A DNA stretch of 64,000 nucleotides from an uncultured Roseburia sp. (GTDB taxonomy: Bacteria; Bacillota; Clostridia; Lachnospirales; Lachnospiraceae). Where the stretch lies: contig UQAQ01000001.1 of the NCBI GenBank assembly GCA_900539115.1, forward strand, positions 21,368 through 85,367, written 5' to 3'. The position numbers and the translations under genes were made by a program. The notes under the pieces are model-generated. The model saw only the letters and a list, made by a program, of their open reading frames with translations. It did no database searches and had not been told where the DNA came from. Shown one piece after another: positions 22,536 through 52,589 of this stretch (positions are counted from its first letter, which is position 1; the number at the start of each line of letters is the position of its first letter).

Positions 22536-24293
22536 ATGAAAAACGTACTGAAAAAGTACAAATGGGAATTTGTCGCTGTGGCAGTATTAATGTTGTTGGT
22601 ATATGCTTCATTGGCGATTTCTTTCGATTTTAAAAATTATGACGTTTCTATGCCTATTGCTTACCAAGGCGGAGATGATTTTGGAACTGCTTATAAGCAT
22701 GCGAAAGTGGTTTCGGATAGTCAAAGTACGTGGATTTATGAGACGGAGCGGCTAGGTGCCCCATATGGAGCAGAATATTATGATTTTATGCCGGATTCGT
22801 TAATGAATGCAGATGTATTGTTCCTGAAGTTTTTTGGGCTGTTTTCCGAGGATCCGGTTGCGATTGTAAATATGACCATTATATTTTTGTTCTTTTTAAT
22901 TGCGTTGATATCTTATTTTGTAATGAGACAGCTGGGGATTCGGCAGGATTTTGCAGTGATAGGAACTTTGCTTTTTGATTTTATGTATTATCATTTTATG
23001 CGGCTGGTAAGTCATTTTTGCTTAAGTTCGTATGAATTTGTACCATTGTCGATTTTAATCTGTGTATGGCTGTGGAAAGATGATAAATTGTTTGAATTCG
23101 GAAAAGGATTCTTTAAATATAAGAAAAACTATCTTGTATTACTTTTCTTTTTTATGATTGCAAACAATGGAATTGGATATTACACATTTTTCACTTGTAT
23201 GTTTCTTGCTATTACCGGGATTTCCAAGGCAATGAAGCATCGTAGCTGGAAAGCAGTATTTCAAATGATTCGCATGGTGGTTTCGAATGTTTTGTTTATG
23301 GTAATTGCATTGATTCCGTGTATCATATACCAAATTCAAAATGGAGCTAATCTTACAGAACGTTCACTTGCGGATTCTGAATTGTATGCATTGAAGATTG
23401 TACAGTTGCTGATTCCGTATAAAGATTATGGAATACAAAAGTTACAGGAATATAATCAGGAATATTATCAGATATTTATCAAGACGGAGTCAATGACTTC
23501 GTACCTTGGTATTATGGCTGGCATTGGTTTTTTGGCATTGATTATTGGCTTGATGCGTAGACGGGAAATTGCCAGGCGGAGAGAACCGCTTGCCTTGTTT
23601 GTGGAATTAAATGTATTTGCAGTTCTTTTTGCTACGATGGGCGGCTTTGGTGGAATCTTTGCCAATTTTGTAACCAGCCTTGTGCGAGGAACTAACCGTA
23701 TTTCTATTTTTATCGCCTTTATGTCGCTTTCGACATTGGGGATATTAATGACACGATGGATGAAAAAACAGAATAAGTATTCTAAAATATGGAAGCCGAT
23801 TTGTGAAGTTCTTTTTTGCGCACTGGCAATATTTAGCTTGTATGATCAGGTCCCGGCGAGTGTGACAGGAGCAGCGGCGCAATTACAAGAAGAAAAGAAT
23901 TCGGACAGCCGGTTTATAGAAAAGATAGAAGCAAGTGTACCGGAAAAATCTATGATTTTTCAGCTCCCGTATCATCCGTATCCGGAGGGAGGTCCCGTGA
24001 ATCAAATGCAGGATTATCATTTGTTTATTGGATTTATGTATTCCGAGCAGTTACGGTGGAGTTACGGTGGAAGCAAAGGACGCGAGGGCGATCTTTGGTA
24101 TCAGCAGACTGCAGGAATGCCGGTAAAACAGATGATAGACGAATTGAAGAAAAAAGGATTTGCCGGAATTTATGTGGACAAGCGTGCTTATGATGAGGAG
24201 AGTTTTGCTTCTCTGGATGCAGCACTAAAAGCAGAACTTGATTGTGAACCGATCAACAGTGCAAACGGAAATTTATATTTTTATGAATTTTAA
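22536..24293 (+). CDS. Polytopic membrane protein (≥10 TM) with a C-terminal extracytoplasmic domain; putative GT-C-type glycosyltransferase or polymerase
   Basis: A 585-aa protein in an AT-rich region. Its architecture resembles the 728-aa protein at 31172. It has no nucleotide-binding motifs, which is consistent with the use of a lipid-linked donor. Confidence 0.45.
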   Translation: MKNVLKKYKWEFVAVAVLMLLVYASLAISFDFKNYDVSMPIAYQGGDDFGTAYKHAKVVSDSQSTWIYETERLGAPYGAEYYDFMPDSLMNADVLFLKFFGLFSEDPVAIVNMTIIFLFFLIALISYFVMRQLGIRQDFAVIGTLLFDFMYYHFMRLVSHFCLSSYEFVPLSILICVWLWKDDKLFEFGKGFFKYKKNYLVLLFFFMIANNGIGYYTFFTCMFLAITGISKAMKHRSWKAVFQMIRMVVSNVLFMVIALIPCIIYQIQNGANLTERSLADSELYALKIVQLLIPYKDYGIQKLQEYNQEYYQIFIKTESMTSYLGIMAGIGFLALIIGLMRRREIARRREPLALFVELNVFAVLFATMGGFGGIFANFVTSLVRGTNRISIFIAFMSLSTLGILMTRWMKKQNKYSKIWKPICEVLFCALAIFSLYDQVPASVTGAAAQLQEEKNSDSRFIEKIEASVPEKSMIFQLPYHPYPEGGPVNQMQDYHLFIGFMYSEQLRWSYGGSKGREGDLWYQQTAGMPVKQMIDELKKKGFAGIYVDKRAYDEESFASLDAALKAELDCEPINSANGNLYFYEF

Positions 24294-24332
24294 GTAATAT
24301 ATGCGTACATCAACGCGGAAAAGGAGAGAAAA

Positions 24333-25112
24333 ATGAAAGCAGTTATTTTAGCAGGAGGATATGGAACAAGAATTAGCGAGGAAAGCCATTTGAAACCGAA
24401 ACCGATGATTGAAATCGGCGAGAAACCAATTTTGTGGCACATTATGAAAGAATACTCACACTATGGGATTAATGAGTTTATCATTTGCTGCGGATATAAA
24501 CAGCACATTATTAAAGAATACTTTAATGACTATTATCTGCACAATAGTGATATTACCTTTGATTTTACCGATGGAAATAAAATGACGGTTCATAATAATG
24601 TGGCAGAACCATGGAAAGTAACATTGGTGGATACCGGTCTGGATACGATGACGGGCGGCCGTGTGAAACGTGTTCAGAAATATGTAGGTGATGAAACCTT
24701 TATGCTTACATACGGCGACGGAGTTTCGGATGTAGATATTGCAAAATTGCTTGAATTCCATAAGGCACACGGGAAAATGGCTACATTGACTGCGATTAAT
24801 GTGGAACAGAGATTTGGTGTGCTGGATATTACGGAAGATGGATTTATCGAGAATTTCCGTGAAAAATCGAAGATGGATGGAAACCGTATCAATGCAGGTT
24901 ATATGGTATTGGAGCCGGGAATTTTTGATCTGATCGAAGGCGATTCTACCGTATTTGAAAAAGAACCATTGGAAAAAGTTGCCAAGATGGGCGAGCTCAA
25001 AGCTTATAAACATGATGGCTTCTGGCAGTGTATGGACACCAAGCGTGAAAAAGAAAAACTGGAAGAACTTTGGGCTTCCGGAAAAGCACCTTGGAAAGTC
25101 TGGGAAGACTAA
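24333..25112 (+). CDS. rfbF: Glucose-1-phosphate cytidylyltransferase
   Basis: MKAVILAGGYGTRISEESHLKPKPMIEIGEKPILWHIM closely matches Salmonella RfbF (DdhA). It is 259 aa long. Confidence 0.85.
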   Translation: MKAVILAGGYGTRISEESHLKPKPMIEIGEKPILWHIMKEYSHYGINEFIICCGYKQHIIKEYFNDYYLHNSDITFDFTDGNKMTVHNNVAEPWKVTLVDTGLDTMTGGRVKRVQKYVGDETFMLTYGDGVSDVDIAKLLEFHKAHGKMATLTAINVEQRFGVLDITEDGFIENFREKSKMDGNRINAGYMVLEPGIFDLIEGDSTVFEKEPLEKVAKMGELKAYKHDGFWQCMDTKREKEKLEELWASGKAPWKVWED

Positions 25113-25136: not shown

Positions 25137-26186
25137 ATGGATTTGACATTTTATAAGGGGAAAAAAGTACTTATTACAGGACATACCGGTTTTAAAGGAA
25201 GCTGGATGTGCCGTACATTGATTCAGGCAGGGGCAGAGGTGACAGGATATTCCCTCGAGCCTCCGACGGATCCCAATCTGTTTTCTATGGCAGAGATTGA
25301 GGATAAGATGAATTCCGTAATCGGAGATATCCGTGATTTGGAAAAATTATCCAATGTTTTCCGGAAAGTACAGCCGGAGATCGTGATTCACCTTGCTGCA
25401 CAGCCGATTGTAAGAGATTCCTATAAGGATCCGGTTTACACGTATGAGACCAATGTGATGGGAACCGTAAATATCTGTGAATGCGTACGCCGGAATCCGT
25501 GTGTGAAGAGTTTTCTCAATGTCACAACGGATAAGGTATATGAAAATAAAGAATGGGAATGGGGATATCGTGAAAATGAGCCGCTGGATGGCTACGATCC
25601 ATATTCCAACAGTAAATCCTGTTCCGAATTGGTGACACATAGTTACAAAAATTCATTTTTCAATGAGACCGGCGTTGCGGTATCGACAGCGAGAGCGGGT
25701 AATGTCATCGGCGGCGGTGATTTTGCCAACGACCGTATTATCCCCGACTGCGTGCGCGCGGCAAAAGAAAAGAAAGATATCGTGATCCGTAATCCATTTT
25801 CCACGCGTCCTTACCAGCACGTTCTGGAGCCGGTCATTGCGTATCTGATGATTGCCAAAGAGCAGTATGAGGATGCCAAATACCAGGGATATTACAATGT
25901 AGGACCGGATGAGACAGACTGCGTGACAACCGGTGATCTGGTCGACCTGTTTGTGGAAAAATGGGGCGAAGGCATGAAATGGGTCAATCAGTATGACGGA
26001 GGTCCTCATGAGGCAAATTTCCTGAAACTGGACTGTTCCAAATTAAAGACAACATTTGGATGGAAACCACGCTGGACCGTATCCGAAGCTTTGGATAAGA
26101 CGGTAGAATGGACAAAGGTATATTTTGCCGGCGAAAGTGTGGCAGACATTATGGACAAGCAGATTAGAGAATTTTTAAATCGATAA
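25137..26186 (+). CDS. rfbG: CDP-glucose 4,6-dehydratase
   Basis: An SDR with GHTGFKGSW and the YSxSK catalytic motif (YSNSKSCSE). It is 349 aa long and follows rfbF. Confidence 0.85.
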   Translation: MDLTFYKGKKVLITGHTGFKGSWMCRTLIQAGAEVTGYSLEPPTDPNLFSMAEIEDKMNSVIGDIRDLEKLSNVFRKVQPEIVIHLAAQPIVRDSYKDPVYTYETNVMGTVNICECVRRNPCVKSFLNVTTDKVYENKEWEWGYRENEPLDGYDPYSNSKSCSELVTHSYKNSFFNETGVAVSTARAGNVIGGGDFANDRIIPDCVRAAKEKKDIVIRNPFSTRPYQHVLEPVIAYLMIAKEQYEDAKYQGYYNVGPDETDCVTTGDLVDLFVEKWGEGMKWVNQYDGGPHEANFLKLDCSKLKTTFGWKPRWTVSEALDKTVEWTKVYFAGESVADIMDKQIREFLNR

Positions 26187-26216: not shown

Positions 26217-27554
26217 ATGTTTGAAAATCAGAATGAAAAACAGGCAAGAGAAAGTATTTTGGAGATGGTAAAAGAGTATTGTGACAAATACCACAATCAG
26301 GAAAAACCTTTTAAAGAAGGCGACCGTATCCCATATGCTTCCCGTTATTATGGACATGAAGAGATGGTAAATCTGGTAGACAGTTCCCTCGAGTTCTGGC
26401 TTACTTCCGGAAGATATACCGATCAGTTTGAAAAGGAATTTGCAGAGTACCTTGGAATTAAATACTGTTCTTTGGTAAACTCCGGTTCTTCCGCAAACCT
26501 GCTCGCATTTATGGCACTGACTTCTCCGTTGATGGGAGACCGCCGTATTATGCCGGGAGACGAAGTGATCACTGTGGCTGCCGGATTCCCTACAACGATT
26601 GCGCCGATCATTCAGTATGGTGCGGTTCCGGTATTTGTTGATATGACCATTCCACAGTACAATATGGATGCTTCCATGCTGGAAGATGCCCTTTCCGATA
26701 AGACAAAAGCGATCATGATCGCTCATACATTGGGAAATCCATGGGATCTTGGAGCAATCAAAGAATTTTGTGACAAACATAATTTATGGCTTGTAGAAGA
26801 TAACTGTGATGCACTGGGATCCAAATATACGATCAACGGCGAAGAAAAATTCACCGGTACGATCGGTGACATCGGTACTTCCAGTTTTTATCCGCCACAC
26901 CATATGACAATGGGTGAAGGTGGAGCGGTTTATACCGACAATCCATTGATCCATAAGGCAGTCCGCTCTTTGAGAGACTGGGGAAGAGACTGCGTATGTC
27001 CATCCGGAAGAGACAACTTGTGCGGACATCGTTTTGACAAGCAGTATGGAGAACTTCCACTTGGATATGACCACAAATATGTATATTCTCATTTTGGATA
27101 CAATTTGAAAGCAACCGATATGCAGGCAGCAGTAGGATGTGCTCAGCTTGCTAAGTTCCCTACATTTGTAGAAAAGAGAAGACATAACTTTGACCGTCTT
27201 CGTGCTGCTTTGGAAGAAGTAGAAGATAAACTCATTCTTCCGGAACCATGTCCAAATTCAAAACCAAGCTGGTTCGGATTCCTTCTTACCTGTCGCGAGG
27301 GCGTAGATAAGAATAAAGTGGTTCAGTATATCGAAGATCATGGCGTACAGACCCGTATGCTCTTTGCAGGAAATATCGTAAAACAGCCTTGTTTCGATGA
27401 AATGCGTGCATCCGGAAAAGGATACCGCGTAGTCGGAAATCTTGCTGTGACAGACCGTATCATGAAAGATACATTCTGGCTTGGTGTATATCCGGGTATG
27501 ACCGATGAAAAGATTGATTATATGGCAAAAGTGATCAAAGAAGCTTTACAATAA
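26217..27554 (+). CDS. rfbH: CDP-6-deoxy-D-xylo-4-hexulose-3-dehydrase (E1), PMP-dependent, with [2Fe-2S] cysteine motif
   Basis: It matches Salmonella RfbH over its whole length: GDEVITVAAGFPTT, FYPPHHMTMGEGG (His replaces the usual PLP-Lys) and DWGRDCVCPSGRDNLC (the C-x-C-x7-C Fe-S motif). It is 445 aa long. Confidence 0.85.
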   Translation: MFENQNEKQARESILEMVKEYCDKYHNQEKPFKEGDRIPYASRYYGHEEMVNLVDSSLEFWLTSGRYTDQFEKEFAEYLGIKYCSLVNSGSSANLLAFMALTSPLMGDRRIMPGDEVITVAAGFPTTIAPIIQYGAVPVFVDMTIPQYNMDASMLEDALSDKTKAIMIAHTLGNPWDLGAIKEFCDKHNLWLVEDNCDALGSKYTINGEEKFTGTIGDIGTSSFYPPHHMTMGEGGAVYTDNPLIHKAVRSLRDWGRDCVCPSGRDNLCGHRFDKQYGELPLGYDHKYVYSHFGYNLKATDMQAAVGCAQLAKFPTFVEKRRHNFDRLRAALEEVEDKLILPEPCPNSKPSWFGFLLTCREGVDKNKVVQYIEDHGVQTRMLFAGNIVKQPCFDEMRASGKGYRVVGNLAVTDRIMKDTFWLGVYPGMTDEKIDYMAKVIKEALQ

Positions 27555-27571: not shown

Positions 27572-28381
27572 ATGACCAGTGAAGAACTTGCTTTAGCAAT
27601 GCGAAAAGACACTGTTCAGATGATTCATAACAGTCATGCGGCACATATTGGTGCCGTATTGTCTGTTATTGATATTGTGGCAGTGCTTTATCATGATGTG
27701 ATGAATTATGATTGTAAAAATCCGAAAATGGAGACAAGAGACCGTCTTGTGCTTAGTAAAGGACATGCAGGTGTAGCCATTTATACGGCTCTTGCAGAAT
27801 GCGGTTTTTTTGATCGTTCGGAATTGAAAAAATATTATACAGACGGCAGTGTGTATTCCGGCCATGTATCCAGTAAAGGGGTGCCGGGAGTCGAAGTTTC
27901 TACCGGAAGTCTCGGACATGGAGCTGGTATGGCGTGTGGTATGGCAATTGCGCTCAAACGGAATGGCAGCCCAAGCCGTGTCTTTGCAATTATCGGAGAC
28001 GGTGAGTGCGAAGAAGGAGAAATCTGGGAAATGGCACTGCTGGCAAATAAACAGAAACTGGGAAATTTTACAGTCATTATTGATCATAACAAATGGCAGG
28101 CTCTAGGAAGATGCGAAGATGTTATCGCTTTTACGGATCTGCCACGCCGCTGGGAAGCCTTTGGCTGGAATGTCATTGACGTAAAGGATGGAAATGATCA
28201 TAATCAGTTGAGAGATGCGTTCTCGCACTTGTCAGAAGAAAAACCAAATGTGATCGTTGCCAATACGATAAAAGGAAAAGGGGTTTCCTTTATGGAAGAT
28301 ACTCTTTTGTGGCATTACCGTGATCCGCAGGGAGAAGCTTATGAACAGGCAATGCAGGAACTGGGAGGTGAATCCTTGTGA
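27572..28381 (+). CDS. Transketolase, N-terminal (ThDP-binding) subunit of a split enzyme
   Basis: It is 269 aa long. It has the ThDP motif GDGECEEGEIWE, the SKGHAG motif and a His cluster. Confidence 0.8.
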   Translation: MTSEELALAMRKDTVQMIHNSHAAHIGAVLSVIDIVAVLYHDVMNYDCKNPKMETRDRLVLSKGHAGVAIYTALAECGFFDRSELKKYYTDGSVYSGHVSSKGVPGVEVSTGSLGHGAGMACGMAIALKRNGSPSRVFAIIGDGECEEGEIWEMALLANKQKLGNFTVIIDHNKWQALGRCEDVIAFTDLPRRWEAFGWNVIDVKDGNDHNQLRDAFSHLSEEKPNVIVANTIKGKGVSFMEDTLLWHYRDPQGEAYEQAMQELGGESL

Positions 28382-29298
28382 GAAATCATTTGATTAATGA
28401 ATTGACCGCAATCGCAAAAAAAGATAAAGACGTGATGCTGATTGCCGGAGATCTTGGCTTTGGAGTGTTGAATGAATTTATGGAGACACTGCCGGATCAG
28501 TTTATCAATGCGGGAATCTGCGAGCAAAATATGGCAAGTGTGGCCGCCGGTCTTGCGTTGGAAGGAAAGAAAGTATATGTGTATTCCATAGGAAACTTTC
28601 CGGGAATCCGATGCTTAGAGCAGGTAAGAAATGACATCTGCTACCACAATGCCAATGTAAAGATTATTGTTGTAGGTGGCGGATTTGCTTATGGACAGCT
28701 CGGAATGAGCCATCATGCGACAGAAGATCTGTCTATTATGCGTTCTCTGCCAAATATGACAGTGTATTCCCCTTCGGATCCGCTGGAAGCTGTGGATGTG
28801 ATCCGTGAGGCTTACGCGACAGAAGGGCCGGGATATATTCGTCTCGGAAAAGGTGGCGAAAATGAACTCTACGACCATGAGATCCAAAAAGGATTTCAGC
28901 CGGTGATCACGCTGCAGGAGGGAGAGAAAGTTGCGCTTTTGGCTACCGGATCTCTTTTGGAAGAAGCAAAGACAGCTTGCGAACAACTTGCGGAGGAAGG
29001 CGTTCATGCGGGACTTTATGATTTTGTCAGCGTGAAACCACTTTCCGAAGAAAAAGTACGTGACATTGCTAAAAAATACCAAGTAATTGTCACAATTGAA
29101 GAGCATACTATAGTCGGAGGCTTCGGAGGAGCGGTTTGTGAAGTGGTTGCCGGAATGTCAGGGGAACGTGCAAGTGTTATCCGCATGGGACTGCAGGATG
29201 AGTATACTACAATTGTAGGAAGCCAGAGGTTTTTAAGAGAATATTATCATATGGTAGCAGAAGATATTGTAAATAAAGTAAGGGAGATTGTTGGATGA
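28378..29298 (+). CDS. Transketolase, C-terminal (pyrimidine-binding/TK-C) subunit
   Basis: A 306-aa protein whose start overlaps the N-subunit stop (GTGA). It has a TK pyrimidine-binding domain and a C-terminal domain. Confidence 0.8.
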   Translation: MRNHLINELTAIAKKDKDVMLIAGDLGFGVLNEFMETLPDQFINAGICEQNMASVAAGLALEGKKVYVYSIGNFPGIRCLEQVRNDICYHNANVKIIVVGGGFAYGQLGMSHHATEDLSIMRSLPNMTVYSPSDPLEAVDVIREAYATEGPGYIRLGKGGENELYDHEIQKGFQPVITLQEGEKVALLATGSLLEEAKTACEQLAEEGVHAGLYDFVSVKPLSEEKVRDIAKKYQVIVTIEEHTIVGGFGGAVCEVVAGMSGERASVIRMGLQDEYTTIVGSQRFLREYYHMVAEDIVNKVREIVG

Positions 29299-30209
29299 AA
29301 CGAGTAGTAGTGACGGGAGCTTCCAGTTTTATTGGAGCCTATCTGATACAGGAATTGCTAAAAGATACAGAAAATGAAATTTATGCGGTGATCCGGCCGA
29401 ATTCGTCAAATCGTGACCGGGTGCCTCAGGATGACAGAGTGAAGATTGTAGAATTGGATATGGCTCAGATAGAAGAACTGCCGTCCTATGTACCGGGACA
29501 GGTGGAAGGATTTTATCACCTTGCCTGGAACGGAACTCGTGGAGAGACCAGGGATGATGAGAAAAAGCAAAAGGAGAATTATGAGGCTTCCCTTCTTGCA
29601 GCAAAAACGGCAGAAAAACTGCAGGCAAAGATGTTTTTGGGAAGCGGTTCTCAGGCAGAATACGGGATTGTGAAAGAGGTTGTTTCAGAAGCCGATGAAG
29701 CGAAGCCGACAACTGCTTACGGAAAAATGAAAAAGCAGACGTATGATGCTTTGAAAGAGTATTTTGCCAATACTTCTGTGAAATTGTACTGGGTTCGTAT
29801 TTTTAGTGTATTTGGACCGGAAGATTATGAAGGAACGCTTATCATGTCATCGCTCGATAAAATGCAGAAAAATGAACCATTGCAATTGACCGAGTGCATT
29901 CAAAAATGGGACTATATCTATATACGAGATGTGGCAGATGCGCTGGCCGGCTTTTTGACAGGACAGGCAGAAGCAGGCATTTACAATGTGGCATCCGGCC
30001 GGGTGCGACCATTGAAAGAATTTGTGCTGGAAATGAAAGAAATTTTACATTCGGAGTCAGAGATTCAATTTGGTGCGGTGCCTTATGGCCCGGCAGGTCC
30101 GGTAAATCTTTGCCCGGATGTCAGTAAAATAAAAAGACAACTTAAGTGGCAGGCAAAAACAAAATTTGATGAAGGAATTGAAGAAATCCTTAAGAAGAAA
30201 TGGAGATAA
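29295..30209 (+). CDS. NAD(P)-dependent sugar-nucleotide reductase/epimerase of the CDP-paratose/abequose synthase (RfbS/RfbJ) type
   Basis: It has the SDR fold with GASSFIG, a YGKMK catalytic pair and WDYIYIRDV (compare RfbS RDFLYIKDL). It is 304 aa long and is coupled to the transketolase C-subunit gene. Confidence 0.65.
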   Translation: MKRVVVTGASSFIGAYLIQELLKDTENEIYAVIRPNSSNRDRVPQDDRVKIVELDMAQIEELPSYVPGQVEGFYHLAWNGTRGETRDDEKKQKENYEASLLAAKTAEKLQAKMFLGSGSQAEYGIVKEVVSEADEAKPTTAYGKMKKQTYDALKEYFANTSVKLYWVRIFSVFGPEDYEGTLIMSSLDKMQKNEPLQLTECIQKWDYIYIRDVADALAGFLTGQAEAGIYNVASGRVRPLKEFVLEMKEILHSESEIQFGAVPYGPAGPVNLCPDVSKIKRQLKWQAKTKFDEGIEEILKKKWR

Positions 30210-30211
30210 TA

Positions 30212-42126: not shown

Positions 42127-42147
42127 TTGTAAGAATGAAAATAATGA

Positions 42148-42190
42148 GGCACCAATTTGATGAACTTGAATTGGTGCCCCTTGTCATGTT
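42148..42190 (+). terminator. Rho-independent terminator after the phosphomutase gene
   Basis: A perfect 10-bp stem (ggcaccaatt / aattggtgcc) with an 11-nt loop, followed by a T-rich tract. Confidence 0.55.
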
Positions 42191-42205
42191 ATGTAGGAGG
42201 TCAGA

Positions 42206-44869: not shown

Positions 44870-47519
44870 ATACAAATTTTCGGTCGTGATCCCGGTTTAT
44901 AATGTGGAAGGATATCTCGCGGAAACATTGGACTCCGTGATCGGGCAGAGCATTGGCTTTGAAAATAATATCCAGATTATCCTTGTCAATGACGGAAGTC
45001 CGGATGACAGCGAAAAAATCTGCCTGGAATATGCAAAAAAATATCCGGATAACATCCTTTATCTGAAGCAGGAAAACAAAGGCGTCAGTGCGGCGAGAAA
45101 TTACGGAATGCAGTATGTAGAGGGAAAATATGTGAATTTTCTGGATTCGGATGATAAGTGGACCAGCGGAAGTTTTCAGGCAGTGTACGATTTTTTTGAA
45201 AAACGTCGGGACAAGATTGACTTGGTGGCCTGTCCACAGAAATTTTTTGAGGCAAGAGACGATTATCACTGGCTTTTCTTTAAATATGAGCAGGGGAGCC
45301 GGATTATCGATGTATTGGAAAAATATAATTATGTGCAGATGCATGTGACGGCTTCCTTTGTGAAAGCAGAGGTTTTGAAAACGCACCGGTTTGATGAAAA
45401 ATTGAAATTTGCGGAAGACTCCAAATTTGTCAATTCCATCATTTTGGATAAATTGAAATACGGTGTCGTGGCAGATGCCCTTCATCTGTACCGCAAGCGT
45501 GTGAATGCTTCTTCGGCGATCCAGAACAAGGGAACATCCAAAGAATGGTATCTTGACACGCCGGAACATTATTATCTGGAGCTGATTCAGGAGTCATTGG
45601 ATAAATACGGAACCGTTCTTTTGTACATTCAGTATTTGATCTTGTACGATTTTCAATGGCGGCTCCGCGATGACCTGAATGGGATATTGACGGAAGAAGA
45701 GCAGGAGTGGTACAAGGAATGGCTGCGGAAAATGCTGCAATATATGGATGACGATCTGATCTGTCATCTGGACAAAATGTATGTCGAGTATAAATTGTAT
45801 GCGCTCTCGCTCAAATATGGCAGAGACATCCGCAAAGAACTGGTATACCGGCGGGGAGCCTTGTATTTCGATCATATTAAAATGTACAGTCTGCAGGCAA
45901 AGTCGCTGTTTTCTGTCGATGTGCTGAATATCCACGAAGATTGTCTGGAACTTGCCGGAAGAATCTGGTGTCCGTTTGCCGATGATCTCACGATCACAGT
46001 GGAAAATGACCGGGGCGAGAGTTTTCCGGTTACTTCCAAGCCGGCACAGTTTCGAAAGGCAGTGATTTTTGGGGAAGAAATGATGCGCGTGCGCGGGTAT
46101 GAGATCCGGCTGCCGCTTGAAGATGCGACGACGTATGAAGTTTACGGGCAGTATCAGGACAATATGCCGCAGCGGTTATTTATCAAACTTGGTAAGTTTT
46201 CCCATCTGAGTCCGAATGTGGAGCAGTTGTATTTCCACAATCACGGATTTATGGTAAGTACCAATCCGGAAAATACAAAATTGTTTGTCGAAAAGAAACG
46301 CGGCTGGAAACATTTGGCAAAAGAATGTGCGCTTTTAAAGCGGTGTTTTCATGATAAAAAGAAAGCGATTGCCGGATACCGCATTCTGGCACATAGTATC
46401 CGCCCATTTTTGCGGAAAGAGCGCTGGCTTGTGATGGAACGCATCAATGTAGCGGGCGACAATGCCGAACATTTTTATAAATATTTGAAGCGGGCGGAAG
46501 AAAAAGATGTAAAATCACGATTTACATTGTCGGAGGACAGTGTGGATTATGAAAAAATGAAAGCTGTCGGACCGGTGCTTCCGTTCCGAAAATTTCATTA
46601 TAAATTGTTTGTGCTGCTTGCCAAACATATTATTTCTTCTCAGGGCGAGGACAATATTTTCAATCCGTGGGATGACGACAGCGAATATATCCGCGATCTG
46701 TACAAGTACAATTTTGTATTTTTGCAGCATGGTATCATTAAGGATGACTTGTCGCAGTGGCTGAACCGGTTCAATAAAAATCTACAGATGTTTGTTACGT
46801 CAGCAAAGCCGGAGTATGAGTCTATTTTGAATGGCGATTATTTTTATGATGAGTCGGTCGTGAAATTGACGGGACTTCCGAGATATGACAATTTGAAACA
46901 GGAAAGTGCCCCGCAGAAGACCATTTTGATCCTGCCGACATGGCGTGCGGCTCTTGCCTGCCGTCTGAACAATGATACCGGCGAGCGTATTTACAATCCG
47001 TTGTTTAAATATTCGGAATTTTACCGTTTTTACAATGCACTGATTCACGATGAGAGACTGCTTCGCATCATGAAGGAAAAAGGGTACCGTGGGAAATTTT
47101 TCCTGCATACCCATCATAAGGTGCAGCTGAAAGATTTTACCGGAAATGATATTATCGAAGTGATGCAGGATGGAATTGATTACCAGGAGGAATTTCGAAA
47201 CAATGCACTTCTTGTGACAGATTTTTCCAGTGTTGCCTTTGACTTTGCGTATTTGAAAAAGCCGGTCATTTATGCCCAGTTTGATAAAGATACCTTCTTT
47301 CAGGGGCAGGTGTATTCGGAAGGATATTTCGATTATGAGAGAGATGGGCTGGGACCGGTGTGCTATGATTATGAATCAACGATAGAGGCGTTAATCCATG
47401 CAATCGAGAACGAGTGCGTGCTGGATCCGTTGTACGACGAGCGCGGCAATGCCTTTTACCGCTGGTTTGACCAGGATAACTGTAAACGAGTTTATGATGA
47501 GATAAGGAGATTGCATTGA
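44859..47519 (+). CDS. Bifunctional GT2 glycosyltransferase + CDP-glycerol/ribitol-phosphate transferase (TagF-like) fusion
   Basis: The N-terminus (FSVVIPVYNVEGYL..LVNDGSPDDS) is a GT2 domain. The C-terminal ~380 aa carry the TagF/TarF-type motif ILILPTWRAA and a His-containing catalytic region. The start at the ATG at 44859 lies behind AAGGAGAG and overlaps the 3' end of the previous gene. Confidence 0.75.
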   Translation: MDYKYKFSVVIPVYNVEGYLAETLDSVIGQSIGFENNIQIILVNDGSPDDSEKICLEYAKKYPDNILYLKQENKGVSAARNYGMQYVEGKYVNFLDSDDKWTSGSFQAVYDFFEKRRDKIDLVACPQKFFEARDDYHWLFFKYEQGSRIIDVLEKYNYVQMHVTASFVKAEVLKTHRFDEKLKFAEDSKFVNSIILDKLKYGVVADALHLYRKRVNASSAIQNKGTSKEWYLDTPEHYYLELIQESLDKYGTVLLYIQYLILYDFQWRLRDDLNGILTEEEQEWYKEWLRKMLQYMDDDLICHLDKMYVEYKLYALSLKYGRDIRKELVYRRGALYFDHIKMYSLQAKSLFSVDVLNIHEDCLELAGRIWCPFADDLTITVENDRGESFPVTSKPAQFRKAVIFGEEMMRVRGYEIRLPLEDATTYEVYGQYQDNMPQRLFIKLGKFSHLSPNVEQLYFHNHGFMVSTNPENTKLFVEKKRGWKHLAKECALLKRCFHDKKKAIAGYRILAHSIRPFLRKERWLVMERINVAGDNAEHFYKYLKRAEEKDVKSRFTLSEDSVDYEKMKAVGPVLPFRKFHYKLFVLLAKHIISSQGEDNIFNPWDDDSEYIRDLYKYNFVFLQHGIIKDDLSQWLNRFNKNLQMFVTSAKPEYESILNGDYFYDESVVKLTGLPRYDNLKQESAPQKTILILPTWRAALACRLNNDTGERIYNPLFKYSEFYRFYNALIHDERLLRIMKEKGYRGKFFLHTHHKVQLKDFTGNDIIEVMQDGIDYQEEFRNNALLVTDFSSVAFDFAYLKKPVIYAQFDKDTFFQGQVYSEGYFDYERDGLGPVCYDYESTIEALIHAIENECVLDPLYDERGNAFYRWFDQDNCKRVYDEIRRLH

Positions 47520-48715
47520 AACAACAGTCATTTATTTTTTGGAAAGAATTGACAAAAGAATATGTGCCGGGAAAAGATGCCCTTGTCCTTTCAAAGCGGG
47601 AGAAGAAACGACTCGATGCCTTTCTTGCTTCTCTGAAACCGGATGTGATGATGGTCGTTCTCTCGGATGAGCCGGTGGAGGGAAAACAGCATATGGCGTA
47701 TGTGAAGGAGCATTATAATGTCGGAACGATCGATGCTTCCCGACTGCTGGTCCGTCCGGAGTTTGTGGCTTTGATACGAAAAAAAGAAAGCGATGGGGAT
47801 TTTGCGCTTCTCTGCCGGCTGTACGAGACGGCAGAAAAATTTGCGGTTTATGAGCGGAAAGAAGAGGACATTATCGTGGATACAAACCGTCCCCGCACAT
47901 GGAATGAGGCGGGGGAATATCCGGTTTCCATCGTTATGTATAAAAATATATGGAAACGCCTGCAGAAAAAACAGGGAAATGTGCTTCCGTTTTTCCAGCA
48001 TCTGCTGATTCAAAATCTGTTTCACGCCGGATTTACGGAAAAAGATTCGATGAGTGAAAATTTGAAACGGGATTTTATCTCGATTTTGGAAGGCATCGAA
48101 GATGATATTTTATGTGGCTGTGAGCAGATTCCGGATGATGTAAAAATCTGGCTGTTAGAAGCGAAAAAGCAAAAAACGATTTTGCCGGAACTTGTATACC
48201 GGAGCGGAAGACTGCGCTACCACAATCTTACGATTACGTCGCTAAAAGAAATGCCGTATGAGATAACATCGATCGCTTACCGGAAGAAAAAGCTCGTTGT
48301 AAGCGGCGAGGTGATTCAGCCGGCAGAGGATGCAGAGATCGTTTATTATGCGATGGACAACCGAAATAAAGAAGTTCCTTTTTCGGTGACAGAAAAAGAG
48401 GTATATTATCTGGGTGAAAAGAAACATACGAGAAAATGCTTTGAAGCCGAAATTCCGGTATCCACAAAGCCGGTGGGGCTGCGCTTTATGTACCGTTACC
48501 ATGAGTTATACCGTGCCAGAGTGCGGATGGCATTTGCCGGGGAATTGAAACTGGTGCCGGAAACCAAAGATGATTATGCGTTTTTGGATCAGCTGATGCT
48601 GCGTACGGAAAAGCGGATTTTGTTTGCTGCACCGCTGCAAAAGAAAACCCGGATAAAGCAGTTCTTTACATTTGGACGAAAAAGCATTAAAATAGAGACA
48701 GGATTACAACAGTAA
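47516..48715 (+). CDS. Hypothetical protein (399 aa), TTG start overlapping the stop of the GT2–TagF gene
   Basis: The reading frame is open with no recognisable motif, and there is no internal ATG for 45 codons. It could be an accessory subunit or the N-domain-like partner of the downstream TagF enzymes. Confidence 0.35.
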   Translation: MKQQSFIFWKELTKEYVPGKDALVLSKREKKRLDAFLASLKPDVMMVVLSDEPVEGKQHMAYVKEHYNVGTIDASRLLVRPEFVALIRKKESDGDFALLCRLYETAEKFAVYERKEEDIIVDTNRPRTWNEAGEYPVSIVMYKNIWKRLQKKQGNVLPFFQHLLIQNLFHAGFTEKDSMSENLKRDFISILEGIEDDILCGCEQIPDDVKIWLLEAKKQKTILPELVYRSGRLRYHNLTITSLKEMPYEITSIAYRKKKLVVSGEVIQPAEDAEIVYYAMDNRNKEVPFSVTEKEVYYLGEKKHTRKCFEAEIPVSTKPVGLRFMYRYHELYRARVRMAFAGELKLVPETKDDYAFLDQLMLRTEKRILFAAPLQKKTRIKQFFTFGRKSIKIETGLQQ

Positions 48716-48763
48716 ATACATCAGAAAATTTGTACTTGTTATTCTGGTGGAATGGAGGAAGTT

Positions 48764-49486
48764 ATGATTTATGGAGTAGTACTTGCCGGTGGTGTCGGAA
48801 GCCGGATGGGAAATGTCGGAAAACCAAAACAGTATCTGCTGGTAGGAGACAAACCGATCTTAATCCACACGTTGGAAAAATTTTACATGCAAAGTGAATT
48901 TGAAAAGGTTCTCGTATTGTGCCCGACCGAGTGGATCTCGCACACAAAGAACCTTGTTCGTAAATATATGAAAGACACTGAGAGAATTGTGGTTCTTGAA
49001 GGCGGCGAGACGAGAAATGAGACGATTATGAATTCGATCGCCTACATCGAAAAAGAGGGCAATCTTAATGAAGATACGATCATTGTCACACATGATTCGG
49101 TTCGTCCTTTTGTGACGCAGAGGATACTGGAGGAAAATATCCGCTATGCGAAAGAATACGGTGCCTGCGATACCGCAGTGGCAGCGACCGATACGATCGT
49201 GTGCAGCGAGGACAATGTGGTGATCAGCGATATTCCGGAGCGTCGCAAAATGTATCAGGGACAGACACCACAGACATTTAAGGCATTGAAACTCCGCCAA
49301 TTATATGAGGCGCTTAGTCCCAAGGAAAAAGAACTTTTGACGGATGCGGCAAAGATTTTTGTTATGAAAGGTGAAAAAGTTCATATCGTAGACGGAGAGG
49401 TGTTTAATATCAAGATTACCTATCCTTATGATCTGCGTGTGGCAGAAGCTTTGATCAAAGGGGAAGAAAACAAATCGGAAGGATGA
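48764..49486 (+). CDS. tarI: Ribitol-5-phosphate cytidylyltransferase (IspD family)
   Basis: MIYGVVLAGGVGSRMG is the IspD/TarI signature. It is adjacent to a TarJ-like dehydrogenase. The start was moved to the ATG at 48764, behind GGAGGA. Confidence 0.75.
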   Translation: MIYGVVLAGGVGSRMGNVGKPKQYLLVGDKPILIHTLEKFYMQSEFEKVLVLCPTEWISHTKNLVRKYMKDTERIVVLEGGETRNETIMNSIAYIEKEGNLNEDTIIVTHDSVRPFVTQRILEENIRYAKEYGACDTAVAATDTIVCSEDNVVISDIPERRKMYQGQTPQTFKALKLRQLYEALSPKEKELLTDAAKIFVMKGEKVHIVDGEVFNIKITYPYDLRVAEALIKGEENKSEG

Positions 49487-49495
49487 AATTAGACT

Positions 49496-50518
49496 ATGCT
49501 GAATGCAGTTTACCGTCTGGTTGCACCCAGACGATTTGAAGTAGAATTTACGGATATTGACCTGACAGCGGGCAATGTGATCGTCAGACCGACGTATTTG
49601 TCAATCTGTAATGCCGATCAGAGATATTATCAGGGAAAACGTGCGGAAGATGTTCTGCGTCAGAAATTGCCGATGGCATTGATCCATGAGGGGATTGGAC
49701 AGGTTGTTTATGATCCGGAAGGAGAATTTCAGGCAGGCGAAAAAGTGGTAATGATCCCCAATACACCGATGAGTGAAGATGAGATCATTGCAGAAAATTA
49801 TCGAAGAGATTCCAAATTCCGCGCCAGCGGTTTTGACGGCTTTATGCAGGATGTTGTGGATATTCGCAGAGACCGGCTAGTCCGTCTCCCGGAGAATATC
49901 AATCCGCTTGTGGCAGCATTTACGGAAATTGTATCGGTCAGTGTACATGCTCTCAGCCGGTTTGATCGAATTGCGCACAAACGCCGGGAATGTGTCGGCA
50001 TCTGGGGCGATGGAAATTTGGGTTATATTACTGCCGTATTTTTTAAGGCAATGTTCCCGGATACGAAGTTATGTATTTTTGGTGTAAACCGCGATAAATT
50101 GTCAGATTTTACCTTTGCAGATGAGACGTATGTGGTTTCCCGGATTCCGGAAGATCTGCAGATCGACCATGCGATTGAATGTGTCGGCGGCGAAGGTTCT
50201 CCGAAAGCAATCAATCAGATTATTGATTATATCCGCCCGGAGGGTACGATTGCGATTTTGGGCGTGTCGGAAAACCCGGTTTCAATCAACACCCGTATGA
50301 TGTTGGAAAAGGGACTTCGTATGTTTGGCAGCAGTCGAAGCGGCAGAGCGGATTTTATGAAAACCATTGAGTTGTATCAATCCAATCCGGAGATTCCGGA
50401 ATATCTGCAAAATATCGTAGGCGGTGTATTTAAAATTCGTTCGATCGATGATATGCGCAAAGCCTTTGAAGCAGATATACACAAAGAATTTGGAAAAACC
50501 ATTATGATATGGAGTTAA
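49496..50518 (+). CDS. tarJ: Ribulose-5-phosphate reductase (zinc-type alcohol dehydrogenase family)
   Basis: It has the MDR fold with the catalytic Zn ligand region SICNADQRYYQG. It is 340 aa long and forms a tarIJ pair. Confidence 0.7.
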   Translation: MLNAVYRLVAPRRFEVEFTDIDLTAGNVIVRPTYLSICNADQRYYQGKRAEDVLRQKLPMALIHEGIGQVVYDPEGEFQAGEKVVMIPNTPMSEDEIIAENYRRDSKFRASGFDGFMQDVVDIRRDRLVRLPENINPLVAAFTEIVSVSVHALSRFDRIAHKRRECVGIWGDGNLGYITAVFFKAMFPDTKLCIFGVNRDKLSDFTFADETYVVSRIPEDLQIDHAIECVGGEGSPKAINQIIDYIRPEGTIAILGVSENPVSINTRMMLEKGLRMFGSSRSGRADFMKTIELYQSNPEIPEYLQNIVGGVFKIRSIDDMRKAFEADIHKEFGKTIMIWS

Positions 50519-50531
50519 ATGGAGGATATTT

Positions 50532-52589
50532 ATGAGTGGCTTACTTTCAAATAAAAATAAGCGGTTTTTAAAGAAGCGATTGAAATTCTGGTTGCAGTGT
50601 CTGACCCATCCGATCTTAAATGAGCATTTGATTGTCTTTGAGGCATTCAGCGGCAAACGATGCGGGGGAAATCTTCGTGCCATCTATGAAGAACTGATGG
50701 AAGATGAGAGATACCGCGATTTCCGCTTTGTATGGATTGTCAATGATATAGAGGCTCATGCGGATCTTAAGGTGCGCCGTCATACACGTGTCGTAAAAAA
50801 GGATTCCCGCTCGGCATTTATCCTTTATGCGAAAGCAAAATACTGGTTTAACAATGTAGCACTGCCAAACTATTTGATTCCGCGTCCGCATCAGGTATAT
50901 GTTGAAACGTGGCACGGAACGCCGTTAAAGCGTCTCGGAAATGATATTCAGTTTGAGGTGGATCCGAGACAGTCTTTGGCAGAAATGCACAAAAAATATT
51001 ATATCAAGGGACGCAAGATGGATTATCTCATCTCGCCATCCCGTTTTTACAGCGAAAAGATGATTTCTTCGTTCCGTCTCGATAAGAGTCATAAAGAAGA
51101 TATCATTTTGGAAACCGGTTATCCGCGAAACGATGCGCTCTTTAAATTTACCGACGAAGATGTCAAACGCATCAAGGAAGAGGTCGGAGTGCCGGAAGAC
51201 AAGAAAGTGATCCTGTACACACCGACTTGGCGCGACAACCAGTTTAAAAAGGGTGAAGGATTCCAATATAATACAGAACTTGATTTCAATAAACTGATGC
51301 AGCAGCTTGGCGACGAATATGTCCTTTTGTTCCGCGCTCACCATCAGATCGGATTCAAAGATGTGGCCAATGATGTGCCGGGTGTGATCGATGTAACGCT
51401 GGTGGATGATGTCAATGATCTGTATATTATCAGTGACCTTATGATCACGGACTATTCTTCGACGATGTTTGATTATGGCGATCTGAAGCGTCCGATGGTA
51501 TTTTATATGTATGATCTCGACGAATATCAGGGCGAGATCCGCGATTTTTATTTTGATATCAACGAATTGCCGGGTCCGATCGTAAAGACACAGGATGACC
51601 TTGTGAAGGCAATTATAGACCAGTTTGCCAACTTCACATACGACGAGAAATACAAAGCATTTACGGAGAAGTTTAATTATCTTGATGATGCCCATGCGGC
51701 ACGCCGTGTTATTGAAAAGACGATTAAGACAGATCTTGGTCCGGCATTCCGCTTTTATAAATGGGTCATCCATACAAAGAATGTCATCCGCAAGAGTTTC
51801 CGTGACGGTTATATCGCATTTTCCGGTATGCTCCGCTGCATGGGACTTTGCCGGACGGAAAACAGCAAACTTTTGTATTCCTATAAAAACAAGCATAAGG
51901 GGCAGCGTTGTTTCCTTGTTGGAAATGGTCCGAGCATGCGTCTTTCGGATCTCGAAGGACTCCAGAAAAACGGCGAGATCACGTTTGGCTGCAATCTTGT
52001 GACGAAGGCATTTGAGCAGACGACCTGGCGTCCGGATTATTATTTCCTGATCGACCGCATCTGTGCGAAATTCCAGAGCGAGGAGATCAACGAGGCAATT
52101 GGAGATATTCCATTATTTACCAATATCACGACATATAATATCTTCCGCGAGAAACCGAAAAATCCGGTTATTTTGTACAATATCGCAAAAGATAAGTACA
52201 AAGTAAAACGTTCTCCGCTGGCATATTATATCCCGTCCGGTTCGACGGTGATGTCATTGATGATTGAGATGGCGGTTTATATGGGATTTTCCGAGATTTA
52301 TCTGATCGGCTGCGACTGTACCTCGACGTTTACCGGAAATACGCATTTTATCAACGGTTATACGGATGACAAATTGAAGCAGCGTGATGCGAAGAAGATT
52401 GTGGATCGCATGCGCCGCCTTGGCATCCAGAGCGATGATTATGAGAAATATTTTCTGGATGGTTCGCTGAATGCGTACACGCTTTTAAAAGAGCATGCCA
52501 TCAAACACCATGTGAAGATTTTCAACGCCACCCGCGGAGGGGCCTTGGAAGTGTTTGACCGCGTGAATCTGGATGATTTTGTAAAATAA
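50532..52589 (+). CDS. TagF/TarL-like polyol-phosphate transferase fused to a C-terminal DUF115 / MptE-like (Maf-type) domain
   Basis: The N-terminal ~430 aa carry TagF hallmarks (YVETWHGTPLKRLG, PTWRD). The C-terminal ~250 aa contain FLVGNGPSMRLSDLEGL, which is the GNGPSL signature of the DUF115 / 6-hydroxymethylpterin diphosphokinase MptE-like fold. Confidence 0.65.
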   Translation: MSGLLSNKNKRFLKKRLKFWLQCLTHPILNEHLIVFEAFSGKRCGGNLRAIYEELMEDERYRDFRFVWIVNDIEAHADLKVRRHTRVVKKDSRSAFILYAKAKYWFNNVALPNYLIPRPHQVYVETWHGTPLKRLGNDIQFEVDPRQSLAEMHKKYYIKGRKMDYLISPSRFYSEKMISSFRLDKSHKEDIILETGYPRNDALFKFTDEDVKRIKEEVGVPEDKKVILYTPTWRDNQFKKGEGFQYNTELDFNKLMQQLGDEYVLLFRAHHQIGFKDVANDVPGVIDVTLVDDVNDLYIISDLMITDYSSTMFDYGDLKRPMVFYMYDLDEYQGEIRDFYFDINELPGPIVKTQDDLVKAIIDQFANFTYDEKYKAFTEKFNYLDDAHAARRVIEKTIKTDLGPAFRFYKWVIHTKNVIRKSFRDGYIAFSGMLRCMGLCRTENSKLLYSYKNKHKGQRCFLVGNGPSMRLSDLEGLQKNGEITFGCNLVTKAFEQTTWRPDYYFLIDRICAKFQSEEINEAIGDIPLFTNITTYNIFREKPKNPVILYNIAKDKYKVKRSPLAYYIPSGSTVMSLMIEMAVYMGFSEIYLIGCDCTSTFTGNTHFINGYTDDKLKQRDAKKIVDRMRRLGIQSDDYEKYFLDGSLNAYTLLKEHAIKHHVKIFNATRGGALEVFDRVNLDDFVK

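Follow-up and report, generated by a model that had tools for sequence, protein, structure and literature searches.

In Yersinia pseudotuberculosis the yersiniose A pathway combines the enzymes DdhA to DdhD with YerE and YerF. YerE, a thiamine diphosphate (ThDP) enzyme, puts an acetyl group from pyruvate on C4 of CDP-4-keto-3,6-dideoxyglucose, and YerF then reduces the product (PMC9306805). Transketolases of the split, two-subunit type have been proposed to move a hydroxyacetyl group to keto sugars; the proposal concerns only natural-product clusters of Streptomyces and was never verified, and according to the same 2025 review the 13 transketolase candidates of an in silico survey all come from Streptomycetes (PMC12247030). 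Here we analysed a 64,000-nucleotide stretch of DNA from an uncultured Roseburia sp. (contig UQAQ01000001.1, positions 21,368 to 85,367 of the forward strand; hereafter the window, numbered from its first letter), in which a block of 23 open reading frames (ORFs), every one on the + strand, extends from 22536 to 52589. Directly downstream of an RfbH gene, this block encodes a split transketolase-like enzyme (TK) and an extended short-chain dehydrogenase/reductase (SDR). Our best reading of these sequences is that the two are a non-orthologous replacement of YerE and YerF, and that the product of this part of the locus is probably a C2-branched 3,6-dideoxyhexose, with a hydroxyacetyl branch that would be reduced to a 1,2-dihydroxyethyl group.

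The first three enzymes of the CDP arm are those of the yersiniose A pathway: RfbF/DdhA, the glucose-1-phosphate cytidylyltransferase (24333-25112; TIGR02623, 405 bits for a cutoff of 300), RfbG/DdhB, the CDP-glucose 4,6-dehydratase (25137-26186; TIGR02622, 453 bits for a cutoff of 278), and RfbH/DdhC, or E1, the CDP-6-deoxy-L-threo-D-glycero-4-hexulose 3-dehydrase (26217-27554; NF011936, 718 bits). The hallmarks of an E1 are an active-site histidine replacing the lysine and an iron-sulfur motif, C-X57-C-X1-C-X7-C. RfbH aligns to the Yersinia E1 structure (PDB 3bcx) with 518 bits (E 1.7e-154), and in this alignment its H228 corresponds to the active-site H220 of the Yersinia enzyme and its C197, C259, C261 and C269 to C193, C251, C253 and C261. 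Because the active-site histidine and all four cysteines are kept, RfbH should need an electron donor. Yet E3 (RfbI/DdhD) was found neither in the window, where no large ORF has a Fer2, FAD_binding_6 or NAD_binding_1 architecture in Pfam, nor next to the 80 related RfbH genes, and nothing in the CDP arm could be recognised as a paratose or abequose synthase. Of the complete CDP-3,6-dideoxyhexose route that a first-pass annotation of this DNA had announced, RfbF, RfbG and RfbH hold, while E3 and a recognisable final synthase are missing; the annotation had moreover left out the split transketolase (27572-28381 and 28378-29298) and the SDR (29295-30209), both of which belong to this arm.

The TK is encoded as an N-terminal, PP-domain subunit (TKN, 27572-28381; PF00456), which matches the split transketolase PDB 6yak with an E value of 1.5e-63, and a C-terminal, Pyr-domain subunit (TKC, 28378-29298; PF02779 and PF02780), which matches PDB 6yaj with an E value of 1.3e-52. 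The start of the TKC gene overlaps the TKN gene by 4 bp. We aligned both subunits with Escherichia coli TktA and about 80 split transketolases taken from a species-level genome scan, and we use the E. coli numbering. The canonical ThDP/metal and catalytic residues are all conserved, H26, H66, H100, D155, N185 and H261 in TKN, E411 and H473 in TKC, and TKC also keeps R358. In transketolases, S385, H461, R358 and R520 contact the substrate phosphate, D469 contacts the C2-OH of the acceptor, and H100 and H473 bind the dihydroxyethyl-ThDP intermediate at its C1-OH. It is this sugar-phosphate and acceptor side of the pocket that is altered in the window protein: S385, H461, D469 and R520 are G, G, L and K, respectively, and F434 is replaced by isoleucine. 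The 25 nearest relatives in the alignment likewise retain H26, H66, H100, D155, N185, H261, R358, E411 and H473, and they share S385G, F434I, H461G and D469L, with R520 either kept or changed to K, whereas the approximately 50 metabolic split transketolases in the same alignment retain S385, H461, D469 and R520.

The same signature extends well beyond this alignment. In an exhaustive search with TKC against 1.84 billion cluster representatives, from which the best 150 clusters (at 50% identity) were aligned, H461 is replaced in all of the 150 nearest representatives, by glycine in 146 of them; F434I and D469L/A/Q are present in most, and E411 and H473 are kept. The window enzyme is one member of a large, apparently uncharacterised clade of its own rather than a decayed gene copy. 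At 50% identity the clade comprises at least 150 clusters; its members come from several bacterial phyla and from some archaea, and their genes always lie in glycan clusters. A housekeeping transketolase was considered for these two genes and set aside because of the altered pocket residues and the synteny. A literature search combining split transketolases and polysaccharides gave no papers. The nearest TK relatives (50-58% identity, with the same altered pocket) lie in capsule-like clusters of Oscillospiraceae and Ruminococcus metagenome-assembled genomes (MAGs; L009-L027), where a cassette recurs that consists of a priming transferase, (an acyltransferase,) an aldo/keto reductase, TKN, TKC and a GT4, with no RfbH (for example at L014:7387-13821 and L016:7171-12955).

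Which gene occupies the slot after RfbH in related loci? A metagenome scan with RfbH retrieved 80 loci at 73-80% identity, 62 of which have enough downstream sequence to judge. In 29 loci the RfbH gene is followed by that of a ThDP enzyme of 576-643 aa, which we call YerE type: TPP_enzyme_N/M/C were found in all five proteins (from five loci) that were scanned with Pfam, and the others were assigned by BLAST similarity to the protein of locus L098, which matches AHAS models below cutoff. A homolog of the window SDR (SDR304, see below) accompanies this enzyme in 25 of the 29 loci, at 25-47% identity, and 20 of the 29 encode a GT2 at least 50% identical to the one encoded at 30200-31168 in the window, these orthologs being 59-71% identical to it. 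A split transketolase follows RfbH in one locus, L121, which has a SDR304 homolog and no such GT2; it repeats the order RfbF-RfbG-RfbH-TKN-TKC-SDR at 67, 65, 77, 59, 50 and 41% identity, respectively, with the same TK signature. Fourteen loci carry neither a ThDP enzyme, nor LicD, nor a split transketolase after RfbH, and among these a SDR304 homolog is present in six and the GT2 in one. The adjacency of RfbH and TK is also seen in L029, a Bacillota MAG with YfhO and a GtrB-like GT2, and in L030, an Acidobacteria MAG. In another 17 of the 62 loci (L088, L092, L120, L123, L128, L136 and 11 more, from human-gut and other metagenomes), RfbF-RfbG-RfbH is followed by a LicD-family phosphotransferase; these loci carry neither a ThDP enzyme nor an SDR, the counts for SDR304 homologs and for the GT2 being both zero, and their arrangement hints that the CDP-deoxysugar is used there as a sugar-phosphate donor.

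At the window locus, the YerE-type decarboxylase-superfamily enzyme (TPP_enzyme_N/M/C) is absent and the split transketolase stands in its position. As in the yersiniose pathway, the ThDP enzyme is directly followed by a reductase: SDR304 (29295-30209; 304 aa, PF01370), whose gene start overlaps the TKC gene by 4 bp, and which we propose to be a YerF-like reductase of the branch carbonyl. It has no close characterised relative, the best PDB match having an E value of 1.7e-15. The two pathways thus resemble each other in the first three enzymes, in the conserved E1 cofactor ligands and in the order of the ThDP enzyme and the reductase. They differ in that the ThDP enzyme of the window belongs to the two-subunit transketolase family and not to the decarboxylase family, in the lack of an E3/DdhD, and in that the host is a Gram-positive-type anaerobe, in which a polyprenyl-phosphate carrier, not an O-unit, appears to receive the sugar. 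The other close parallel, which we could draw by description only, is with the split transketolases of the miharamycin and amipurimycin clusters of Streptomyces; these are likewise encoded next to keto-sugar-forming enzymes, with a proposed C2 branching of a ketone (PMC12247030). They are uncharacterised as well, but they belong to secondary-metabolite clusters, whereas the window gene pair lies in a locus for a primary surface glycan of a gut Firmicute and would act on a CDP-sugar acceptor.

The second arm of the block resembles the Gmd/Rmd pathway to GDP-D-rhamnose of Aneurinibacillus thermoaerophilus and Pseudomonas aeruginosa. It encodes ManA, a class I mannose-6-phosphate isomerase (36244-37206; TIGR00218, 162 bits for a cutoff of 116), ManC, the mannose-1-phosphate guanylyltransferase (37235-38305; PF00483 and PF22640), which scores 349 bits against TIGR01479, just under the 373-bit cutoff of that bifunctional model, and Gmd, the GDP-mannose 4,6-dehydratase (38344-39390), which passes its equivalog model (TIGR01472, 485 bits for a cutoff of 415) and for which gene callers choose an internal ATG that gives a protein of 343 aa. 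Rmd, the GDP-6-deoxy-D-lyxo-4-hexulose reductase, also an SDR (39427-40437), has its best PDB matches in 2pk3, the A. thermoaerophilus Rmd (E 8e-77), and 6x3b, a GDP-6-deoxy-D-mannose reductase (E 1.5e-45). They are followed by a phosphohexomutase of the PGM/PMM family (40453-42126; 557 aa; PF02878, PF02879, PF02880 and PF00408), which scores below the cutoff of every NCBIfam model, and for which a PDB sequence search at E ≤1e-30, too strict a threshold, returned nothing; this enzyme could supply mannose 1-phosphate and possibly also glucose 1-phosphate. The manA-manC-gmd-rmd route with its phosphomutase, as first annotated, is upheld by these matches. Here again the downstream part departs from the known pathway, since in place of GT-B rhamnosyltransferases and an ABC transporter the window has a DPM1-like GT2, GtrA and GT-C enzymes.

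How would these sugars reach a surface polymer? In three-component glycosylation (PMC7389260, PMC11127046), a concept that covers GtrA/GtrB/GtrC, CsbB/GtcA/YfhO for lipoteichoic acid (LTA) or wall teichoic acid (WTA), ArnC/ArnT and the Pgf proteins of Streptococcus mutans, the characteristic parts are those also present in the window, namely a GtrB-like GT2, GtrA, and YfhO or another GT-C enzyme. The GtrB/ArnC/PgfS-like GT2 (30200-31168; 322 aa, PF00535) has C-terminal transmembrane (TM) helices at residues 238 and 272, and reaches 186 bits with the NCBIfam PgfS model and 105 bits with ArnC, both under cutoff. A second, soluble GT2 of 235 aa (35513-36220; PF00535) is DPM1/AglJ-like, and the NCBIfam models that it matches best all describe synthases of polyprenyl- or dolichyl-phosphate sugars (AglJ, 80 bits; a dolichyl-phosphate hexose transferase, 57 bits; ArnC; PpgS), again below cutoff; we propose it as a polyprenyl-phosphate-D-rhamnose synthase. 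The small membrane protein encoded at 34880-35431 belongs to the GtrA family (PF04138, 65.6 bits for a cutoff of 26) and is a candidate polyprenyl-phosphate-sugar flippase. The GtrA/GtrB-type lipid-carrier modules noted at first pass are therefore really there, in the form of one PF04138 protein and two GT2s resembling polyprenyl-phosphate-sugar synthases. In another species (L183), a DPM1-like GT2 80% identical to that of the window is found with GtrA, ManA, ManC and Gmd, together with two DUF6311 paralogs, a homolog of the 484-aa GT-C protein described below and an ortholog of the TagF-MptE protein, and with no CDP arm. We found no GT-B enzyme, no Wzx/Wzy, no ABC exporter and no priming transferase in the block, the only GT domains being those of three GT2s. 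Because of this, the most likely course is that both rare sugars are first attached to polyprenyl phosphate and then transferred by GT-C enzymes on the outer side of the membrane, a lipid-carrier route for CDP- and GDP-sugars that we infer from gene content.

Of the "at least five" GT-C-like membrane proteins initially counted, four were found. The first, of 585 aa (22536-24293), is a divergent member of the DUF6311 family with about 10 TM segments and a C-terminal outer domain. Pfam gives no match for the protein, although PF19830 is present in most of its 82 homologs. Its AlphaFold2 (AF2) model (pLDDT 89, pTM 0.90) has only GT-C enzymes among its 14 best Foldseek matches in the PDB (STT3, AglB, AftD, AftA with a TM score of 0.55, and ArnT; E 4e-8 to 2e-4). 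The second is a DUF6311 polytopic membrane protein of 728 aa (31172-33358; PF19830, 99 bits; about 9 TM segments), for which a GT-C fold is predicted: hhalign relates it to the family of the 585-aa protein with a probability of 62.7% (E 7e-5), while BLASTP between the two proteins gave nothing; the family link draws mainly on the Pfam matches of the homologs and on the predicted fold. The third, of 484 aa (33381-34835), has no Pfam or NCBIfam match and belongs to a small family of 25 homolog clusters restricted to Lachnospiraceae-type bacteria. Its AF2 model (pLDDT 86.8, pTM 0.89) finds ALG6 first in Foldseek (E 2.6e-4, TM score 0.51), then EmbA/B, GPI-MT-I, ALG9, ALG3 and PglB. The last is a YfhO-family GT-C glycosyltransferase of 887 aa (42206-44869), which matches PF09586 over its full length (365 bits), and PgfM1/PgfM2 of NCBIfam weakly. 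Compared with the three-component systems known so far, the window is unusual in having two lipid-sugar synthases and four GT-C proteins in a single block, in its proposed donors, a CDP-sugar and GDP-D-rhamnose and not UDP-Glc or UDP-GlcNAc, and in that its GT-C proteins include the DUF6311 and 484-aa families, which have no characterised member.

The third arm consists of genes of the ribitol teichoic acid type. TarI, the D-ribitol-5-phosphate cytidylyltransferase (48752-49486; NF001183, 367 bits for a cutoff of 166), and TarJ, the ribulose-5-phosphate reductase (49496-50518; matching the Staphylococcus aureus structure PDB 6xh9 over its full length, E 3.4e-126), are clear orthologs of the known enzymes. 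With them are two TagF-like proteins, as the initial annotation had it: an 893-aa fusion (44838-47519) of a GT2 domain (PF00535, residues 15-179) and a TagF-like polyol-phosphate transferase domain (PF04464, residues 521-889), and a 685-aa fusion (50532-52589) of a TagF/TarF-like phosphotransferase (PF04464, 342 bits, residues 25-396) and an MptE-like domain (PF01973, 60 bits, residues 448-597). The latter gives 298 bits with TarF and 94 bits with TarL of NCBIfam, both under cutoff, and indeed neither protein attains the cutoffs of the TarL, TarF or TarB models. In its architecture the 893-aa fusion resembles capsule polymerases in which a glycosyltransferase is joined to a TagF-like domain and which produce poly(glycosylpolyol phosphate) (PMC5974469). 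The window resembles the TarI, TarJ, TarL/K and TarF systems in its two orthologs and its two TagF-like domains, one of them fused to a GT2, and differs from them in the under-cutoff scores, in the MptE-like domain and in that TagO/A/B/D, TagGH and LCP are not nearby. The earlier expectation of a decorated teichoic-acid-like polymer is reasonable, but a wall teichoic acid is not established, because the linkage-unit, exporter and LCP genes are lacking in the window; S-layer glycosylation, the other destination then envisaged, and protein glycosylation are possible alternatives. Between the 893-aa fusion and TarI lies the gene of a cytoplasmic protein of 399 aa (47516-48715), which overlaps the upstream gene by 4 bp; it has only chance-level matches in Pfam (at E up to 1), in NCBIfam and in a profile search of PDB sequences, and none of its 19 homolog clusters is annotated. 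In the other species (L183), the ortholog of the TagF-MptE protein (L183:4616-6679, 50% identity) has CTP_transf_3, HMGL-like and HAD genes as its neighbours, and these point to a CMP-activated acid sugar at that locus.

Family scans with Pfam and NCBIfam place the three nucleotide-sugar modules where the first-pass annotation had located them, and the spacing between genes, from -32 to +81 bp with several 4-bp stop/start overlaps, agrees with the compact co-directional block it described, with routes to a CDP-hexose derivative, GDP-D-rhamnose and CDP-ribitol. The transcription unit probably begins one gene before that block, with the gene of a DUF6270 protein (20370-22457, + strand; 695 aa, cytoplasmic, with no TM segment; PF19786, 98 bits in two stretches), which lies upstream on the same strand and is conserved with the block in L001-L008. 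Promoters and terminators were called by pattern matching only. The two best promoter-like sites on the + strand, each with 11 of 12 matches, lie just 5' of the DUF6270 gene (20313-20341, with a TG extension) and just 5' of the first GT-C gene (22454-22482), and three weaker ones fall in the largest gaps or those at module borders (35441-35469, 42117-42145 and 48665-48693). A terminator-like hairpin at 52598-52623 (+ strand; 11-bp stem with 7 GC pairs) begins 9 bp past the last stop codon, where the unit would end, and is the strongest such site on the + strand in 36000-55900; no comparable hairpin was found between genes inside the block. As far as patterns of this kind go, they are compatible with one long operon with internal promoters. 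An Rfam scan of the whole 64-kb window detected no regulatory RNA or other Rfam family. A literature search on the DUF6270 and DUF6311 families gave no papers.

The exact RfbH protein is found in 558 blocks of the assembly index, mostly from human-gut metagenomes, and the gene order of the whole block is identical in every contig inspected, as well as in a sister species whose DNA is about 80% identical. The strain variability expected of such a locus was borne out only weakly, in that gene order is constant save for one 1.7-kb insertion in one strain. This insertion (L006:18653-20543, against window ~34826-34881) lies between the genes of the 484-aa GT-C protein and GtrA, and encodes an extra protein of 524 aa with 9 TM segments and no family match; before it stands a 170-nt copy of window 35387-35556. 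In the same strain the 585-aa GT-C allele has diverged to 75% identity. The locus is a conserved species trait with limited variation in GT-C content, not a hypervariable island.

These observations can be assembled into the following scheme. The enzyme families, the order and coupling of the genes, the altered TK pocket, the GT-C folds and the synteny with YerE-type loci are seen in the sequences themselves. One to a few transcription units would form a single envelope glycopolymer locus that feeds three precursors into a largely extracytoplasmic assembly. RfbF, RfbG and RfbH would produce CDP-4-keto-3,6-dideoxy-D-glucose and, because no E3 is encoded at the locus, RfbH would receive its electrons from a general donor of the ferredoxin or flavodoxin type. 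The branching chemistry that we infer for the next step is the addition by the split transketolase of a C2 unit, most likely hydroxyacetyl from a ketol donor, to the keto carbon, after which SDR304 would reduce the branch carbonyl, the pair acting as a non-orthologous YerE/YerF analogue. The GtrB-like GT2 would then pass the finished CDP-derived sugar to polyprenyl phosphate. In parallel, ManA, the phosphomutase, ManC, Gmd and Rmd would make GDP-D-rhamnose, which the DPM1-like GT2 would load on the same kind of carrier, and GtrA would flip the sugar-loaded lipids to the outer side of the membrane. TarJ and TarI would provide CDP-ribitol, which the two TagF-like enzymes would use in the cytoplasm to assemble a polymer containing ribitol phosphate, and the four GT-C enzymes (two of DUF6311 type, the 484-aa type and YfhO) would finally move the rare sugars to that polymer or to another surface acceptor.

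Several points weigh against this scheme. The missing E3 may mean that the E1 reaction has a different outcome, and the TK clade is also found in clusters without RfbH, so that its acceptor is not necessarily a CDP-keto sugar. We know of no polyprenyl-phosphate glycosyltransferase that uses a CDP-sugar. Similarity alone cannot separate Rmd-type reductases from GDP-6-deoxy-D-talose synthases, and GDP-D-rhamnose could be a direct cytoplasmic substrate for the GT2 domain in the 893-aa fusion. Genes for TagO, TagA, TagB and TagD, for the TagGH exporter and for an LCP ligase were not found in the 64-kb window, and the internal promoter-like sites at 35441, 42117 and 48665 allow separate transcription of the modules. 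With these points counted, we still lean slightly towards the scheme as a whole. The CDP arm might instead lead to a plain 3,6-dideoxyhexose, SDR304 being then a C4 ketoreductase like paratose or abequose synthase, and the TK a metabolic enzyme supplying pentose phosphates, such as ribulose or xylulose 5-phosphate for TarJ, or sedoheptulose 7-phosphate. That the TK retains all ThDP and catalytic residues, that its best PDB relative is a genuine metabolic split transketolase and that TarJ requires ribulose 5-phosphate would all agree with this, but S385, H461 and D469, kept in all metabolic split transketolases examined, are replaced here, the TK genes are translationally coupled to those of RfbH and the SDR, 20 kb away from tarIJ, they occupy the YerE-like slot of related loci, and SDR304 homologs are found in none of the 17 LicD-type RfbH loci, which have no ThDP enzyme; a plain dideoxyhexose seems to us very improbable. 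Only a little less improbable is a TK that uses pyruvate in a decarboxylating, DXS-like manner, so that the branch would be acetyl and the product yersiniose-like rather than new. TKC does resemble DXS also (E ~1e-29), and the downstream GT2 has orthologs, as much as 71% identical, that work with YerE-type cassettes, which suggests similar sugars. Against an acetyl branch, H100 and H473 are retained, and both subunits are nearer to transketolase than to DXS, TKC with 182 against 106 bits and TKN with 245 against 34 bits in NCBIfam.

The destination of the sugars and the unity of the locus leave somewhat more room for other readings. The acceptor may not be a teichoic acid at all: the GtrB-like GT2, YfhO and the other GT-C enzymes could serve a Pgf-like O-glycosylation of proteins or of an S-layer, or the decoration of LTA, with the ribitol-phosphate genes making a separate polymer. 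In NCBIfam the GtrB-like GT2 comes closest to PgfS and YfhO to PgfM1/M2, parts of the S. mutans protein glycosylation system, and these matches point that way, although far under cutoff, as do the lack of WTA linkage-unit, exporter and LCP genes in the window and the best Rmd match, which comes from A. thermoaerophilus, whose S-layer glycan contains D-rhamnose. But the TagF-MptE protein and the GT-C/GDP module co-occur in another species (L183), all modules share a block that has just one strong terminator-like site, and the window contains no gene recognisable as that of an S-layer protein; we hold a non-teichoic acceptor to be rather unlikely, if the most serious of the alternatives. Somewhat less credible still is that the block is a mosaic of three adjacent and independent loci, one for three-component decoration with a CDP-sugar, one for D-rhamnose transfer by GT-C enzymes and one for a ribitol-phosphate polymer, each with its own promoters and targets. 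The CDP arm and the GtrB-like GT2 do stand alone in many metagenome loci, the GDP arm and the GT-C genes occur without the CDP arm in L183, and the internal promoter-like sites fall exactly at module borders; yet no terminator-like hairpin separates the modules, their order and content are the same in all sampled strains and in the sister species at ~80% DNA identity, and the whole block seems to rely on one GtrA and one phosphomutase. Foreign origin was also considered from base composition; the GC dips (0.37-0.39) coincide with membrane-protein genes and give no argument for recent transfer.

Some further variation was seen among the strains and in the surroundings of the block. A 16-bp deletion at window ~32581 splits the DUF6311 gene in L001, and the L002 assembly has indels of 1-2 bp at window 21310, 25603 and 34146 that interrupt the genes of the DUF6270 protein, RfbG and the 484-aa protein. 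Such changes may be genuine inactivating mutations or may stem from errors of assembly. Phase variation was rejected as an explanation, the frameshifts not being at long homopolymers and perhaps being assembly errors. Three kb downstream of the block, an Acyl_transf_3 membrane protein of the O-acyltransferase type (55694-56782) could modify the glycan. Beyond 55.6 kb the strains differ, with Fic, Rce1-like and acetyltransferase genes in others; further downstream the window has an ECF sigma factor with a DUF4179 anti-sigma factor (57261-58941) and a tyrosine recombinase (60504-61442). The flanks hold spore-germination (CspBA) genes of the Clostridia type and glycogen genes, the CspBA-type germination protease adjoining a sigma-70-family factor (12621-14946, - strand).

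In conclusion, each module of this locus is of a known kind (Ddh/Rfb, Gmd/Rmd, TarIJ/TagF and the Gtr-type three-component system). What sets it apart is that a transketolase-family enzyme occupies the YerE slot in a locus for a cell-surface glycan, and that CDP- and GDP-deoxysugars apparently pass through lipid-phosphate carriers. Distinctive as well are an array of four GT-C enzymes, of which three belong to uncharacterised families, and the joining of all these features to ribitol-phosphate genes within a single block that is conserved in an abundant gut commensal. We tentatively go further and suggest, as a possibility that we rate below an even chance, that the TK is the first transketolase-family brancher of nucleotide sugars for a primary surface glycan, that it forms a 4-C-hydroxyacetyl and then, with the reductase, an undescribed 4-C-(1,2-dihydroxyethyl) sugar, that this sugar is displayed by a CDP-sugar-dependent polyprenyl-phosphate route, and that the clade is a widespread family of branched-sugar synthases.

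According to the 2025 review, which lists only Streptomyces candidates, the use of ketone acceptors by transketolases has never been shown in vitro (PMC12247030). The locus is thus a testable case for the use of a ketone, here a keto sugar, as acceptor by the transketolase family in nature, and likewise for the entry of CDP- and GDP-deoxysugars into glycans through polyprenyl-phosphate carriers and GT-C enzymes, and for the roles of the DUF6311 family and of the new 484-aa GT-C family. A new ThDP enzyme forming α-functionalised tertiary alcohols would also be of interest for biocatalysis. For the organism, the product of the locus is likely a major surface antigen of a frequent gut commensal. 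If the further suggestion made above is true, this commensal would display a new sugar, and the TK clade would be an unrecognised and widespread group of branched-sugar synthases.

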